This document shows positions 8,977-54,236 of a DNA stretch of 64,000 bases, piece after piece. Both the position numbers and the translations under genes were made by a program. Within the stretch, counting starts at the first letter, position 1. Every line of letters begins with the position of its first letter. The notes beneath the pieces are model-generated. The model ran no database searches. It was not told where the DNA came from and saw only the letters and a program-made list of their open reading frames with translations. Source of the stretch: Escherichia phage vB_EcoS_VAH1; sequence record MK373792.1; one strand, 5' to 3'.

Positions 8977-9750
8977 ATGGCTAAGTCTTGGGGCGAAACT
9001 ACTGGCGGTTCTAACGATAAAATCGAATTCCTGAAGTTCAACAACGGTATCACTCATGTTCGTATCGTTTCTGGTGTTCTTCCACGTTATGTCTACTGGC
9101 TGACTAATAAAGAGGGTAGCGTAGCTCCTTTCGAATGTCTCCGTTTTAACCGTGACAAAGAGAGCTTTGTTCGTGGTAAAGCTGATCCGGTTCATGAGAT
9201 GGGCTTCTTTGAGAAAGAGCTGGATAAAGATGGTAATCGCGTTCCGCTGAAACCGAAGAAAAACTATATCGCTTTTGTTATCGACCGTTCTGATAACAAA
9301 CTGAAAGTAATGGAAGTCAAAGCTACTATTCTGAAAGGCATCCAGTCTATCATGAAGCAGTTGAGTCTGGCAACTCCGTTTGATATTGATATTTCTATCG
9401 AGAAAAAAGGTAAAGGTTTCGATACTGAGTATGATGTACAGCAGATTGCTGCTATGCAATTCCAGATTAAGCTGCAAGATCCTAACAGTGCAGAATCTAA
9501 GCAATATGCTGCGGATGTAGATCTGATTGGTGAAGCTATGTGTGATGAAGATGGCGACATCATTAAGTTCGAGAAAGTTCCTTCTCTGGAGCAAACCTAT
9601 CCGGTTCCTACCTATGAAGAGCAGAAAGAAGCAATTCAAGCCTTCATGGAAGGTCGTGAGAATAAAGATGATGATGCCAAATCTGGTAACAGCAATGCTG
9701 GTTCCCAGAAAGGTATTGACCAAGAAGCTGCAAGCGATCTGGATGACTAA
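8977..9750 (+). CDS. putative ssDNA-binding/DNA-binding protein with acidic C-terminal tail
   Basis: Strong RBS AAAGAGGAAA; highly optimal codon usage; acidic C-terminus ...QEAASDLDD; followed by a terminator. Confidence 0.55.
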   Translation: MAKSWGETTGGSNDKIEFLKFNNGITHVRIVSGVLPRYVYWLTNKEGSVAPFECLRFNRDKESFVRGKADPVHEMGFFEKELDKDGNRVPLKPKKNYIAFVIDRSDNKLKVMEVKATILKGIQSIMKQLSLATPFDIDISIEKKGKGFDTEYDVQQIAAMQFQIKLQDPNSAESKQYAADVDLIGEAMCDEDGDIIKFEKVPSLEQTYPVPTYEEQKEAIQAFMEGRENKDDDAKSGNSNAGSQKGIDQEAASDLDD

Positions 9751-9755
9751 TAAAT

Positions 9756-9782
9756 AGAGGGGCTTCGGCCCCTTTCTTTTTA
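9756..9782 (+). terminator. Rho-independent terminator
   Basis: AGGGGC-TTCG-GCCCCT hairpin followed by TTCTTTTT. Confidence 0.7.
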
Positions 9783-9786
9783 ACCA

Positions 9787-10263
9787 ATGATTACACAAGA
9801 GCGATTAAAAGAGCTGTTAGATTATAATCCTGAGACTGGAGTATTTACCTGGAAAGTATCTCGTGGTAGAGTTTCAAAAGGATCTGTAGCTGGAACAGCA
9901 GTATCAGTAGGGAATAGGTACACCCGCTGGGAGATTCGAGTTGAAGGAAAAAGATATAAGGCGCATCAGTTAGCATTTCTATACGTTCATGGTTATATTC
10001 CACCTGAGATTGATCATGAAGATAGGAATCCATTGAATAATGCAATACTTAACCTAATAGACTCTTCAAAGTCTCGTAATCAATTAAATAAGAATAAAAA
10101 CTTCGGTAAAGAAACACCAAAAGGAGTCTTTGTAAAAGCCTCTACTGGAAGATACTTCGTACAGATTCAAGGAAAGCACTACGGCTACTTTGATGACGTA
10201 GAACAGGCCAGAACTGTTGCTAATGAGGTATATGATAGGTTGTTAAATGAGAATACTGTTTAG
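9787..10263 (+). CDS. HNH homing endonuclease (MITQERLKEL family)
   Basis: N-terminus MITQERLKELLDYNPETGVFTWKVSRG; HNH motif YKAHQLAFLYVHGYIPPEIDHEDRNPLNN. Confidence 0.8.
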   Translation: MITQERLKELLDYNPETGVFTWKVSRGRVSKGSVAGTAVSVGNRYTRWEIRVEGKRYKAHQLAFLYVHGYIPPEIDHEDRNPLNNAILNLIDSSKSRNQLNKNKNFGKETPKGVFVKASTGRYFVQIQGKHYGYFDDVEQARTVANEVYDRLLNENTV

Positions 10264-42716: not shown

Positions 42717-43451
42717 TTACGCAACTTTTAATTTCTCAATATACTGTTGCGGGCTGCAACTATATTCTGCGCGTTCTTCTTCAGTCATACCTTCCCAACA
42801 TAATTGCAAGCGATCGGCTAGGAACTGATAATCATTATCATCCTCAAGAGATTCGTCAATAAAGGTTTCACCTATCAATGTGACACCGATTGATAGAATA
42901 TCATTAACGGCTTGCGCGTCCAGCGTTTTAAATCCGTATGATGCCGCCGCTGCCAATACTCCCTTATGATCGTCGATCATCGTGAAATCAGCGTTCGGAT
43001 ATAGCTGTTTAAATAGCTCAAAGTAATGACTTTTATATATAGCGTCCTTACTGTGGTATATTTCGCTAACCTTATCAGCTTCAAAATATTTGTGAAGCGT
43101 ATCGCGGGAAAATACACGGATATTACTATTTCCACGCCCTCGCAGTCCTTGTTTGCGCAGGTAATAATAATCTGACTTGCTCATCAGTCGAGCGGTACAA
43201 ATAACGTTTAACGTGTTGGCGTCATTCATGCACTGGCGCATATATGTAACAAGCGGCAATAGTGTATCTTGCATTATTAAATCATGTTTGCAGGCTTCAT
43301 TTTTATACTTATTTAAATCTAAATTGCCCTCGCTATCAAAGCAAGGCGCTACGCGATGGAAAGAATTGATGATTGTTCCGTCCAGATCCCAAATCATGAC
43401 GCGGGAAATATGCGGGAAATTACGGGTAATATTCGTTTTAACTTGATTCAT
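42717..43451 (-). CDS. dmp: 5'-deoxyribonucleotidase, HAD-superfamily (T5 dmp-like)
   Basis: HAD motif I IWDLDGTI; 244 aa; adjacent to the A1/A2-like genes. Confidence 0.75.
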   Translation of the reverse strand: MNQVKTNITRNFPHISRVMIWDLDGTIINSFHRVAPCFDSEGNLDLNKYKNEACKHDLIMQDTLLPLVTYMRQCMNDANTLNVICTARLMSKSDYYYLRKQGLRGRGNSNIRVFSRDTLHKYFEADKVSEIYHSKDAIYKSHYFELFKQLYPNADFTMIDDHKGVLAAAASYGFKTLDAQAVNDILSIGVTLIGETFIDESLEDDNDYQFLADRLQLCWEGMTEEERAEYSCSPQQYIEKLKVA

Positions 43452-48234: not shown

Positions 48235-48425
48235 TGTTATAGTTTCCTTATGTTATTAGTTTAATCTCTATTATATTATATCAAAATCATTAGCAGACTA
48301 CCTAATGAGTTTTTCAGGTTTAATTAGCAGACTCATAATCACTCTAAAAACCTATTAGCCAACTAACTATATTTTATTATATAATAACAACATAAATTAG
48401 TTAGTGAGAAACACTATCATTTAAG

Positions 48426-48533
48426 TTATCCACAGGTTTATACATTTTGTAAATTTGATTGACACAATAGGAAGGCTTTATAGCACTTTTACACAGACTT
48501 ATCCACAGGTTATTCCACTGTATAAATATACAG
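48426..48533. promoter_or_regulatory. DnaA-box pair plus 16-bp palindrome module (copy 1)
   Basis: TTATCCACA at 48426-48434 and 48499-48507; palindrome CTGTATAAATATACAG at 48518-48533. Confidence 0.55.
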
Positions 48534-51227: not shown

Positions 51228-51422
51228 ATGAGCAATAAAATTATTGTAACCAAAACTACCACAATGGTTGACGTTTTTTATGTGCCCGATACGCTGGAAA
51301 ACCGGCAAGCGGTCGAGCGTGGCGAGTATGATAAAGTGATTTATGATCACGATGGTTATTATAAGCATTTGGTGGATTCCTACGGGGAGGAGGAAAAAAT
51401 CACGCATCAATTACCGGACTGA
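51228..51422 (+). CDS. hypothetical small protein
   Basis: 64-aa ORF with an acidic C-terminus. Confidence 0.45.
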   Translation: MSNKIIVTKTTTMVDVFYVPDTLENRQAVERGEYDKVIYDHDGYYKHLVDSYGEEEKITHQLPD

Positions 51423-51661
51423 CAACAAGCGGGGCGCAACTATCAGGGAGTGCCCCCAATTCTCAAATGAGAATGATTCTCATTTGACCGCGCCCGCGAT
51501 GGTTAGCCTGCTAATGATTAGGGTGTTACGTGTCGCCTTGTGTGATAGTTAGCGAGCTAACTAATTTTCAAGCCTCCTCCAATTTTGCCCTTGTTTTAGT
51601 ATCCCCATCAAAATAAAACGCGTTAGAATGCGATTCAGGGCGTTTTAGGCCTATATTAGAA

Positions 51662-51789
51662 TTATCCACTGTGTAGGAATACTGTATAAATATACAGTAG
51701 GATAAGCTGTGGATAAGTCTGTTGATAACGCTTCAAAATGGCTAGAATTCTGTCAAGGCAAATCGTGCTGTTGATAAGTCTGTGGATAA
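51662..51789. promoter_or_regulatory. cluster of five DnaA-box-like sites plus 16-bp palindrome (copy 2)
   Basis: TTATCCACT (51662-51670), TGTGGATAA (51708-51716, 51781-51789), TGTTGATAA (51720-51728, 51769-51777); palindrome CTGTATAAATATACAG at 51682-51697. Confidence 0.6.
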
Positions 51790-51814
51790 CTTAAATAACA
51801 GTGTTTCTCACTTC

Positions 51815-51980
51815 CATTCTTAAATGAGAATCATTATCATTCGTATTCCACTTTTTAAATGAGAATCATTTCACTTTTTAAATGAGAATCATTTCACTTT
51901 TTAAATGAGAATCATTCCCTTTCTTAAATGCGAATCATTATCATTCGCATTTCACTTTTTAAATGAGATTGATTCTCATT
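51815..51980. repeat. tandem array of about six ~21-bp repeats (consensus TCACTTTTTAAATGAGAATCATT)
   Basis: Direct reading: repeated TTAAATGAGAATCATT cores with sub-repeats CATTATCATTCGCATT. Confidence 0.75.
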
Positions 51981-51999
51981 ATCATTCGCATTCAGGCGA

Positions 52000-52017
52000 G
52001 CAGGGCAATTGCCCTGC
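52000..52017. other. perfect 18-bp palindrome GCAGGGCAATTGCCCTGC
   Basis: Perfect dyad, followed by a short T-run (GCTTTTG). Confidence 0.5.
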
Positions 52018-52022
52018 GCTTT

Positions 52023-52803
52023 TGTGCAAATCCGACATTTGCTCCAAGGGTTACGTGCTGGCGTGTATGTGCGAATCCGACAATTTTTGGTAGTGTGCAA
52101 ATCCGACCCGAAAAATTTTTATAGTGTGCGAATCCGACAATGAATTTTCCCAAAAACTCCAGCAATCACGAACTGCGTTCGAATCCTGTGGGATATGTGC
52201 AAATCCGACACGGTTTTTCTAGGATTAAGATGTGCGAATCCTACAAGATTTTTGTGACTTCGATGAGAGGGTGTGTGATTGTATAGGTTTGAGGAGAAGT
52301 TGAGAGAGCGAGAAAAATTTGGGGAGCTAGAAGGATGTGGGCGCAGGATTGGTGCGAAGCACCTGATTTGCGGGGATTTTGGGGAAGAGTTGAGATAATT
52401 TGGGGAAATTTGAGATAGGTGCAGAAAAAGTAAAATTTTATTAGCAAAATGGGGCAAAATAGCTTGACAAGTGAAAATTCTTGTGGCTCTAAAAACTCAG
52501 GCAATCATGGGCCTTCGGCCCGAAATAATGCTGCTATTTTCAGGAGAGTAAGAGTTCCTAAAAACTTAGGCGTTTGTGCAAATCCGACCATAAATTTCTA
52601 GAAATGCAGTGTGCAAATCCGACAGTAATTTCTGGAAATGTGTTTTCAAAAAATGTCTCCTAGAAATAACCGCCCTCCCTATAACCGCCCTGTATTAAAC
52701 CGCCTAGTATATGTAACGTTGGAGAGAAACTGCCCTAGAATATGTGCAAATCCGATGAATATTTTTGTGCTTATCAATTTCCTAGAATATGTGCAAATCC
52801 GAT
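52023..52803 (+). repeat. dispersed array of ten 15-bp iterons, consensus TGTGC(A/G)AATCCGACA
   Basis: Copies at 52023, 52068, 52095, 52125, 52196, 52231, 52575, 52610, 52743 and 52790, all in the same orientation. The last two lie in a duplicated ~35-bp unit; TGTGCTTATCAATTTCCTAGAA is also duplicated. Confidence 0.75.
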
Positions 52804-53176
52804 GAATATTTTTGTGTGATCTCTAGAATTTGTGCTTATCAATTTCCTAGAAACTTAGGAGTCTAGAAGAAAGTGTTGTGCCATCCTAGCAGATGAGCGG
52901 CAACCGGTGTATCATCTTGAACACAGATATTGCCTTTAAATATTATAAGGTAAATTAAAAGTAAAGTAGCCCCCATTACATGTGTGCTTACTCGTGGGGC
53001 GCGTGATTAATTACGTAAGTCCTCGACTGTCATACCCCTGTTGCTCGGTCGCAAAGAGTTAACGAAGTCTCGTGTAATAATCATCGCCCCTAGAGTTCAA
53101 AACAAGAGTTGTTTTTAATCTATGTGATTATTATAACATGTGCCGCAATGAGTTGTCAAGAAGATTTTGTTAACTT

Positions 53177-53560
53177 TTATTCCTCCTCTTCGAGATTGGT
53201 ATTGGGATCGTAAATTTTCTTGGCTCCTGTATTTAATAGGAATCGCTCTGCAAGTTGTGGGTGAATATCAAAGAACTCTGTGCATCCTTCGAATCCCTTT
53301 AAATTACAGCGGTATTTCTTAAAGTAGATATGAGCAGCGGCTTCTAGATCTCTAGGATTATGGGTTTCATAAATCCCATACACGTATAAATCGTCAAAAC
53401 CTCGATAGACTATCTTATCTAAGTTTAGTGTTTGAATCCTATTATGTGGATTCATACTGATACCGATCTTTGTTCTTTTAGGGATCTTCGTCAGATCCCT
53501 ATTTGCAAGAATATATACTTTATATAGTGACATTCTTTCTAGCCTTGAGTTTGATACCAA
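53177..53560 (-). CDS. T5orf172 (GIY-YIG-like) domain protein
   Basis: KVYILANRD...KIGIS...RIQTLNLD...YVYGIYETHNP...GCTEFFDIH matches the T5orf172 domain pattern; TTG/ATG start ambiguous. Confidence 0.6.
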   Translation of the reverse strand: MVSNSRLERMSLYKVYILANRDLTKIPKRTKIGISMNPHNRIQTLNLDKIVYRGFDDLYVYGIYETHNPRDLEAAAHIYFKKYRCNLKGFEGCTEFFDIHPQLAERFLLNTGAKKIYDPNTNLEEEE

Positions 53561-54236
53561 GAGATGCGAAGTAGATATAAGTTGCTAAATAGGACATAGC
53601 AGATCCTGTCTCTTCGTAAGAGAGAGTTCCTTTCACGTACCTCTTATATTCTGGCTCTAGATTAATAATCGTAGTACTTGGCAATCCTAGCGAATTACAT
53701 AATGATTTGAATGTTTCTTTATCTCTATGAATCGCATAGTGAATGGCTTTCTCCATTGGAGTTAACTCTAGATCTTTGGTAATGGCTACATGCAAACTCG
53801 CTATAGTCATGCCAATCCCACGATACGTTTCTTCTTTATTAAGGGAAGGTCTCTGTTTTTCTAGCTCAGGAAGATGTGCAAATTCTCCCTTCTTTCTAGG
53901 AATCTTATCATCACTAAGTAATGCTGTTAAGAAATCTGTTTCTTCATAGGCTGGGAGCACTTCATCAATTAATACTAGAATAGAGCTAGCATTGATACCT
54001 TTCGCACTAGGATCTAAAGATTTTAATGCTTTATTAGTTTCAACGTAGGAGCCTGCTAACACAACTTTTGAGCTATTCCGATCATATTTAATTTTATTCG
54101 CTTCCCAACGCGCAGGACGATAATCAGATAGAAACATTACCGCATACTTTTGTTCATCTGTTAGCTCGGAGAAACATTTCTGGTTTGATTCTTTTGCTAG
54201 CGCAATAAGGTGCTTTAGTTTTTCTGCTTTATTCAT
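53520..54236 (-). CDS. hypothetical protein (possibly the N-terminal part of the T5orf172 protein)
   Basis: 238-aa ORF overlapping the downstream ORF by 41 nt in another frame. Confidence 0.5.
   Translation of the reverse strand: MNKAEKLKHLIALAKESNQKCFSELTDEQKYAVMFLSDYRPARWEANKIKYDRNSSKVVLAGSYVETNKALKSLDPSAKGINASSILVLIDEVLPAYEETDFLTALLSDDKIPRKKGEFAHLPELEKQRPSLNKEETYRGIGMTIASLHVAITKDLELTPMEKAIHYAIHRDKETFKSLCNSLGLPSTTIINLEPEYKRYVKGTLSYEETGSAMSYLATYIYFASLGIKLKARKNVTI

Follow-up and report, generated by a model that had tools for sequence, protein, structure and literature searches.

What holds the DNA of a T5-like phage at the boundary between the two steps of its injection, and could the repeats at this boundary be part of the answer? 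Why T5 transfer stops at ~8% of the genome is a question that is decades old; the mechanism of arrest is still called poorly understood, with unspecified "host components" invoked (2026 paper). Classical T5 transfer arrest needs no protein synthesis (Davison), and A1 and A2, the latter of which binds DNA, are required for transfer to resume (Davison; annotation). In T5 Repeat Region 3, the IRD′-spacer-IRC′ segment is followed by DRE1/2, DRC1-4, palE-palJ and then nine DRD repeats, and the function of these repeats has been called "impossible to guess" (Davison, bioRxiv 10.1101/866236). Here we analyze the corresponding array in the window, by which we mean the whole stretch of 64,000 nucleotides (64 kb) that was studied. 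On balance, we consider it probable that the array is an operator cluster for host Fur, embedded in the cis-acting injection stop signal (iss)/Repeat Region 3, which lies at the terminal repeat's inner end.

The window comes from a T5-like phage that is ~91% identical to BF23. Its A2 protein is 100% identical to BF23 A2. Over the left terminal repeat of BF23 the alignment shows ~91% identity, and BF23 nt 1 falls at the left end of the terminal-repeat segment given in the table. The end of the BF23 left terminal repeat (9743) projects to ~52480 and that of the Kenya-K18 DTR to ~52425, which places the array ~500 bp inside the right boundary of the repeat. The array occupies an ORF-free gap of ~1.75 kb (51423-53176) between convergent genes, rightward pre-early and leftward early, and this gap aligns to the Kenya-K18 DTR, the T5 LTR/iss and the BF23 LTR. 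In the T5 reference record, 9140-10149, inside the left terminal repeat, is annotated as the iss, and the major single-chain interruption is annotated at 9748/9749. With the 2.1 kb surrounding the array as query, 474 phage records (Salmonella, Escherichia and Klebsiella T5-likes) matched at ~90% identity, and no plasmid did. An origin of the plasmid or phage-plasmid type, suggested by the combination of DnaA boxes and iterons, was therefore rejected.

By this alignment, the array is the iss/Repeat Region 3 element of a BF23-like phage, catalogued before without an assigned function; the putative role of a T5-type iss is to arrest DNA transfer in cis at ~8% of the genome. The array shares with T5 Repeat Region 3 its position between IRC′ and the DRD repeats, and both are flanked by paired DnaA boxes, a GC hairpin with the nick and TGTGCAAATCCGAC repeats; the region is ~90% identical to T5, DT57C and BF23. 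It differs in that the window has three short units, whereas T5, DT57C and NR01 have other numbers. The repeats themselves were already catalogued for T5 (as DRC, DRE and pal), and what is new is their match to Fur operators. In the papers on Repeat Region 3 that we found, only DnaA is discussed, IHF and FIS are loosely mentioned and Fur is absent. No paper linking Fur to the T5 iss or terminal repeat was found in the searchable literature, which does not take in older subscription papers.

The elements on either side of the array are equally recognizable. On the left, DnaA boxes occur at 51662-51670 (TTATCCACT), at 51708-51716 and 51781-51789 (TGTGGATAA), and at 51720-51728 and 51769-51777 (TGTTGATAA); the last four form two pairs, 51708-51716/51720-51728 and 51769-51777/51781-51789, with 3 bp between the boxes of each pair. 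Paired DnaA/DnaA* boxes in IRD′-spacer-IRC′ have been described for 25 T5-like phages (Davison, bioRxiv 10.1101/866236). On the right, the hairpin proper covers 52000-52017 and is followed by GCGC. The window carries an exact copy, at 52000-52023, of the nick-bearing T5 sequence GCAGGGCAATTGCCCTGCGC|TTTT (nick at the vertical bar), and the homologue of the major single-chain interruption is accordingly predicted between 52019 and 52020. The array ends ~30 bp to the left of this predicted nick.

Table. Coordinates of the array, its flanking elements and box arrays in other phages (window coordinates unless a locus is named).
Feature	Position	Strand	Remarks
Terminal-repeat segment	42595-52480		right boundary approximate, projected from the BF23 LTR end
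Isolated Fur-type box AATGAGAATGATTCTCATT, perfect palindrome	51466-51484		inverted repeat I13; 23.9 bits
DnaA-box cluster (T5 names IRD′-spacer-IRC′)	51662-51789		sequence; direct repeat D12
Array unit 1 (35-bp long)	51814-51848		strong Fur-type box 51823-51841, overlapping +6-bp partner 51829-51847
Array units 2-4 (three 23-bp short units TCACTTTTTAAATGAGAATCATT)	51849-51917		13-bp core AATGAGAATCATT only; predicted weak/half Fur sites
Array unit 5 (35-bp long)	51918-51952		strong box 51927-51945, +6 partner 51933-51951
Array unit 6 (long)	51953-51993		box 51962-51980; partners +6 at 51968-51986, +12 at 51974-51992
GC-rich hairpin GCAGGGCAATTGCCCTGC, then GCGC/TTTT	52000-52023	+	terminator-like; homologue of T5 7.9% nick
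Iteron-like repeat TGTGCRAATCCGA x10 (T5 'DRD')	52023-52802	+	repeat family D3; directly downstream of array
phAPEC8-type arrays	L125 2495-2600 (phAPEC8); L124 2474-2579 (tuntematon); L126 9574-9679; L164 11652-12687 (ECO340P1)		
IMG/VR near-consensus arrays	L173, L006, L069, L187, L256, L192, L212, L239, L242, L031, L238		

A preliminary description, made from the sequence alone, had reported about six head-to-tail copies of an AT-rich, ~21-bp repeat with nested sub-repeats, immediately after a DnaA-box cluster. Most of this stands. The array is a real tandem repeat of six head-to-tail units (51814-51993) by both Tandem Repeats Finder and repeat families, it directly follows the paired DnaA boxes (51708-51728 and 51769-51789), it is AT-rich (GC 0.29, a local minimum), and the nested sub-repeat TCATTATCATTCGYATT is found inside the three long, 35-bp units (family D8). 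The period needs correction: the unit quoted is itself 23 nt long and the period is therefore 23 bp, with three units extended to 35 bp. Tandem Repeats Finder gives 51845-51939 with period 23, 4.1 copies, 91% matches and a score of 153, and in repeat family D2 the units start at 51814, 51849, 51872, 51895, 51918 and 51953, a spacing of 35, 23, 23, 23 and 35 bp. A seventh D2 copy stands isolated from the array at 51457-51484; the box within it lies ~300 bp upstream of the second DnaA-box pair, directly past the last rightward pre-early ORF. Allowing up to two mismatches, the 64-kb window contains 14 occurrences of the 13-mer core AATGAGAATCATT where 3.9 are expected; none of 100 shuffles reached 14, and 11 of the 14 fall within 51466-51980. 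Unit 5 is a palindrome with a 10-bp stem (inverted repeat I14), which appears as a hairpin in the fold. As single strands, the palindromic units fold very stably (z = -6.2), which is expected of palindromic operators and so does not discriminate between readings. A structured RNA was rejected, since an Rfam search of the region yielded only two sub-threshold matches (15-20 bits against gathering scores of 92 and 627).

Which protein might recognize such units? To describe the Fur operator independently of phage sequences, we used thirteen intergenic regions of well-established Fur-repressed K-12 operons (fepA-fes, fepD-entS, fepB-entC, fhuA, fecI, tonB, cirA, fiu, ryhB, exbB, fhuF, fhuE and sodA), with no phage or iucA input, and sought a palindromic 19-mer motif de novo, with no consensus supplied. 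The search recovered the Fur box, with AATGATAAT-n-ATTATCATT as its register; in a leave-one-out analysis, the 13 true E. coli sites score 9.5-21.1 bits (median 17.8). The half-site ATTCTCATT/AATGAGAAT, which dominates the phage array, is carried by the natural ryhB, fhuA, exbB, fecI and fhuE sites, and ATTCTCATT itself by those of ryhB, fhuA and exbB. When the 64 kb were scanned with the Fur matrix, using the phage's own base composition as background (maximum possible score 25.3 bits), the best four sites of the window all lay in the array region: 51823-51841 (24.6 bits), 51466-51484 (23.9), 51927-51945 (22.5) and 51962-51980 (19.9). About 0.004 sites of at least 19.9 bits are expected by chance in 64 kb, although the boxes are duplicates of one another and their scores are therefore not independent events. 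The best score in 2000 dinucleotide shuffles of 51440-52000 was 16.6 bits.

Weaker sites surround the strong ones. The partners offset by +6 bp score 10.2 (51829), 13.7 (51933) and 15.8 bits (51968), and the +12 partner 7.5 bits (51974). The 19-mers of the short units score 6.7 (51858), 6.7 (51881) and 13.5 bits (51904), and we read these three central 23-bp units as predicted weak or half Fur sites. Compared with the classical Fur consensus GATAATGATAATCATTATC, 51965-51983 agrees at 16 of 19 positions. The aerobactin operator GATAATGAGAATCATTATT has exactly the core found here, AATGAGAATCATT. This operator is among the published iron boxes (PMC10665472), and we located it ~20-60 bp upstream of iucA in a ColV-type plasmid; 804 plasmids carry it.

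Known Fur clusters are built of overlapping sites 6 (or 3) bp apart, and the array's +6-bp partners have this spacing (Chen et al., 2007, PMC2189734). As in these clusters and at iucA, whose 13-bp core it shares, the array consists of near-maximal 19-bp palindromes, with overlapping sites 6 bp apart and a mixture of strong and weak sites over >100 bp. It differs from them in lacking promoter overlap and lying between convergent genes in a virulent phage, in having its sites phased in tandem (23/35 bp) instead of in a contiguous run of hexamers, and in the predominance of GAGAAT half-sites. The only promoter-like match that overlaps the boxes (51958-51985) agrees at just 9 of 12 positions, no more than shuffles give, and a promoter array was rejected because the promoter scan yielded no more than shuffles did. 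Since the genes are convergent, terminator-like hairpins bracket the boxes and no promoter above chance lies on them, the usual role as a repressor site does not fit the array. Two features of the phage boxes speak against Fur. At matrix position 6 they favor G (66%, versus 23% in E. coli sites, which favor T), and this could point to a different protein. In addition, the 9-bp spacer is conserved about as well as the core within Tequintavirus, and in part in My1; recognition by a second factor, or of the unit as a whole, is possible.

Are the boxes conserved? T5-like loci were collected using the DnaA-box pair as anchor; five of 17 distinct anchored sequences were unrelated. Twelve T5-like loci were scanned. 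All 12 carry three to six boxes of at least 17.8 bits at fixed positions: every locus has a box at +55 from the DnaA anchor, two or three further boxes lie at the distal end, and a box upstream of the anchor (-302) is present in nine; in T5, L138 and BF23, no box was found at this position. Changes in the number of weak 23-bp units make the distance from anchor to hairpin vary between 233 and 340 bp. The same division extends to four further genera of the Demerecviridae, in which the strong boxes hold their position and the weak 23-bp units vary in number. Sugarland, a Klebsiella phage of another genus, lacks 23-bp units; between its DnaA boxes and the GCGC motif stand three boxes (21.8, 21.6 and 21.8 bits) spaced 35 bp apart. 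My1, a Pectobacterium phage of another subfamily whose A1 is 66% identical, has boxes of 20.7, 22.0, 17.6, 21.8 and 21.6 (+19.2) bits at 35/35/23/35-bp spacing, with TGTGCAAATCCGAC repeats directly after them, ~500 bp inside the end of its LTR. In the Proteus phage Stubb, two boxes are kept, of 19.4 and 14.9 bits. In all three the order of elements is kept (DnaA boxes, Fur-type boxes, GCGC nick motif, TGTGCAAATCCGAC repeats), and the DRD-type repeat TGTGCRAATCCGA also follows the boxes. The Vibrio phage Thalassa, a T5 relative, has no array, only scattered boxes.

Since the strong boxes keep position and score while the weak units vary, the strong boxes are the conserved element; the short 23-bp units look like slippage-prone expansions between them. 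A comparison of copy number between related isolates had been proposed in the preliminary description as a check on whether the repeat is neutral. Its outcome is divided, with neutral-looking variation in the weak units and conservation of the strong boxes.

Some of these relatives also have boxes near mapped or predicted genome ends. In My1 (L166), a Fur-type box of 18.1 bits occupies nt 17-35, 17 nt from the left physical genome end, and no counterpart was seen in BF23 or Stubb. PhageTerm places the repeat ends of Sugarland (L165, ~3270) and Stubb (L167, 11415) at the CCTGCGC nick motif that closely follows the last box, or no more than ~20 bp from it, whereas the repeats of T5, BF23 and My1 run ~500 bp further; what was called a terminus in the former two phages may be the nick.

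Boxes of this kind are not confined to T5-like phages. The array part of the sequence also matches unrelated ~150-kb myoviruses of the phAPEC8 group, in which a non-coding gap holds four boxes at an exact 29-bp spacing (24.6, 16.5, 22.5 and 14-18 bits) and one box has the canonical AATGATAATCATT core. In a tblastn search of coliphages with the window's proteins, A1 and A2 homologues were found in T5-like phages only (126 Escherichia records each, versus 196 in the DNA search, which includes the phAPEC8 group), and the phAPEC8-group boxes are therefore not explained as A1/A2 sites. At least 120 contigs of IMG/VR matched in a scan for the exact pattern. Among the matches listed, 116 loci are neither T5- nor phAPEC8-like, and 17 loci have at least three strong boxes within 400 bp; the arrays among them range in GC from 0.21 to 0.53 and contain 3-9 boxes with unrelated spacers, some with partners offset by 6 bp. 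A scan of IMG/VR with the 14-mer AAATGAGAATCATT gave mostly single chance matches. When ORFs within 1.5 kb of the boxes were clustered for the 116 unrelated contigs among the matches listed, no recurrent DNA-binding family appeared; the largest families were large terminase subunits, and 4-5 of 13 array-bearing unrelated loci among the matches listed adjoin a large terminase gene. As the spacers and phages differ and share no phage partner, the site is best explained as that of a conserved host protein, which, judged by its match, would be Fur.

Several further details of these phages were recorded. The phAPEC8-like gap also holds AACTTTAAAT and TTGAGATAA repeats, and the TTGAGATAA repeats downstream of the boxes resemble the DRA repeats TTTGGGGAAGAGTTGAGATAA of the window. 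In ECO340P1, boxes of 23.7, 19.5 and 19.5 bits occur in another non-coding region, ~13 kb from the first. A ~10-kb terminal repeat of ECO340P1 with boxes at 9.6 kb was considered and rejected, since its ends share 55 bp, most likely an assembly overlap. In IMG/VR, the arrays directly beside large terminase genes are those of L192, L031, L238 and L256.

If Fur binds the array, how might it contribute to the stop in transfer? From the features described above, we infer both the binding and an effect on DNA transfer. Fur is abundant and present in the cell before infection, so it would need no phage protein synthesis. As the DNA enters, Fur could nucleate on the strong boxes, spread over the weak units and coat ~180 bp, and together with DnaA on the adjacent paired boxes it could form a host nucleoprotein complex. 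This complex would sit at the boundary between first-step and second-step DNA, slightly left of the 7.9% nick, and could help to hold or mark the DNA there until A1 and A2 act. An arrest that occurs without phage protein synthesis (Davison) fits a pre-existing host protein, and the array lies inside the T5-annotated iss, left of the nick. Counting against this proposal are the lack of the 51466 box in T5 and BF23 and the lack of an array in the Vibrio relative; moreover, it is not obvious how a cytoplasmic protein could halt entry by binding DNA that is already inside. T5 forms plaques on fur mutants, and the expression of FhuA, its receptor, is highest with Fur inactive. Fur binding would therefore not be essential for infection.

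Could Fur instead act in DNA maturation, as a host architectural factor for the terminase, nickase or terminal-repeat duplication machinery near the repeat boundary? We hold this to be unlikely, and it is the main rival to a role in injection. It would account for the nearness of the array to the terminal-repeat boundary (~500 bp) and to the conserved nick motif (at most 30 bp), for the PhageTerm ends right after the last box in Sugarland and Stubb, for the My1 box at the left terminus, and for the large terminase genes directly beside arrays in unrelated contigs among the matches listed; strong Fur clusters also lie upstream of nohA and nohB, prophage homologues of the terminase small subunit (Chen et al., 2007, PMC2189734). 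However, T5 and BF23 have no strong box at the left terminus, the only nearby site (16.0 bits) being inside dmp, and the association with terminase may be biased, since assemblies break at tandem repeats and contig ends often lie close to terminase genes; the array contigs, too, may not be independent. IHF acts as a host architectural factor at lambda cosB. There, as here, sites for a host DNA-binding protein lie in a non-coding cis region near a genome end or packaging signal, and box arrays in other phages abut terminase genes; the difference is that Fur-type boxes would serve another protein, with many sites rather than one, and that their link to packaging is circumstantial. Alternatively, the boxes may be operators for a phage protein, such as A2 with A1 or a virion protein, and their resemblance to Fur boxes coincidence or mimicry. 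The need for A1 and A2 when transfer resumes, the DNA binding of A2 (Davison), the systematic preference for GAGAAT over GATAAT and the conserved spacer would all suit such operators, to which we give only a small chance: the matrix, built solely from E. coli promoters, gives scores of up to 97% of its maximum, the boxes recur in phAPEC8-likes and many unrelated contigs that have neither A1/A2 nor a recurrent DNA-binding neighbor, and arrest happens without phage protein synthesis.

It has also to be asked whether the boxes bind Fur to no structural end, with phage DNA titrating Fur, or occupancy reporting iron status, and so altering host iron-gene or phage transcripts. Four strong boxes per terminal repeat (3-6 in relatives) and two repeats per genome, multiplied by hundreds of genomes per cell, would by our inference rival the Fur pool. 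Arrays of consensus boxes in the non-coding DNA of many phages would suit a sponge, and a perfect sigma-70 promoter (53159-53130, minus strand) is oriented toward the region. Derepression of host genes would, however, be of little value to phages of the T5 type, which destroy host DNA early (Davison). Convergent genes and terminator-like hairpins enclose the array, no strong promoter overlaps it, and a sponge leaves the fixed position of the array between DnaA boxes and nick unexplained; we regard titration or sensing as quite improbable. The suggestion of the preliminary description that the periodicity reflects cooperative binding of IHF or Fis, or a DNA unwinding or bending element, survives in part: a cooperative array for a host protein beside the DnaA boxes remains a probable reading, with units that match the Fur operator in place of the proteins named. 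The IHF consensus WATCAANNNNTTR has no match in 51400-53600, and IHF sites were rejected for the region on this ground; its five matches in the whole window include none between 38636 and 60438. An origin-type module, with the repeats as an unwinding element or as IHF/Fis bending sites that help DnaA, finds encouragement in the side-by-side DnaA boxes, AT-rich array (GC 0.29) and iteron-like repeats, and oriC likewise has a DnaA-box cluster adjoining AT-rich repeats. Unlike oriC-type modules, the region has no IHF consensus, and its repeats are Fur-type palindromes, not 13-mer unwinding repeats. It is moreover iss/Repeat Region 3 and has no plasmid relatives, and T5 origins lie near the genome middle, the first-step DNA lacking replication genes (Davison, bioRxiv 10.1101/866236). 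The region is thus probably not the phage origin, and we consider an origin-type role very improbable. Less credible still are neutral, slippage-prone repeats or simple hairpin or terminator elements with no protein ligand. The copy number of the 23-bp unit does vary between close relatives, the palindromic units do fold well as single strands, and one unit was flagged as terminator-like; yet the strong boxes stay in place and close to the consensus in genera with diverged flanking genes, no more than three G-C pairs are found in the AT-rich stems, and convergence on the Fur consensus in unrelated phages would not be expected.

If the array is a Fur platform at the injection stop, what would follow? 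The repeats beside the DnaA boxes are the best-conserved part of the iss region, and their probable identity as Fur operators offers a candidate ligand and makes the old question of two-step injection directly testable. These would be Fur operator clusters outside a promoter, in a cis element of a virulent phage. A broader idea, which we put forward tentatively and with some doubt, is that host Fur is a structural cofactor of phage cis elements, in which arrays of consensus operators outside promoters assemble a host nucleoprotein complex at a genome end, injection stop or packaging site, both in T5-likes and, independently, in phAPEC8-like and other phages. Were this so, DNA transfer or maturation would be coupled to host iron status, and the missing host component of T5 two-step injection would be supplied. 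If the arrays of unrelated phages also bind Fur, the protein may serve phage DNA handling generally, beyond promoter control, and phage infection may be tied to the iron status of the host.

Finally, we note several features elsewhere in and near the terminal repeat. The iteron-like TGTGCRAATCCGA copies are irregularly spaced and straddle the terminal-repeat boundary, with a degenerate extra copy at 53429, and tandem TTTGGGGAAGAGTTGAGATAA repeats (T5 'DRA') at 52378-52417 lie within ~100 bp of the projected boundary. The minus-strand sigma-70 promoter (TTGACA, 18 nt, TATAAT, with TG) is just downstream of the last leftward ORF and directed into the non-coding repeat region, with no ORF or known RNA after it. 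In Repeat Region 2 (48400-48530), where the DnaA-box module is present as an inverted copy, a Fur-like site of 16.2 bits (48403-48421) abuts the DnaA boxes, and the counterpart on the array side (51794-51812) scores only 8.4 bits. The Fur-box-like sequence in the 3′ part of the dmp gene (42821-42845, 16.0 bits) matches the classical consensus at 16 of 19 positions on both strands, is separated by ~230 bp from the terminal repeat's left end and is identical in BF23.
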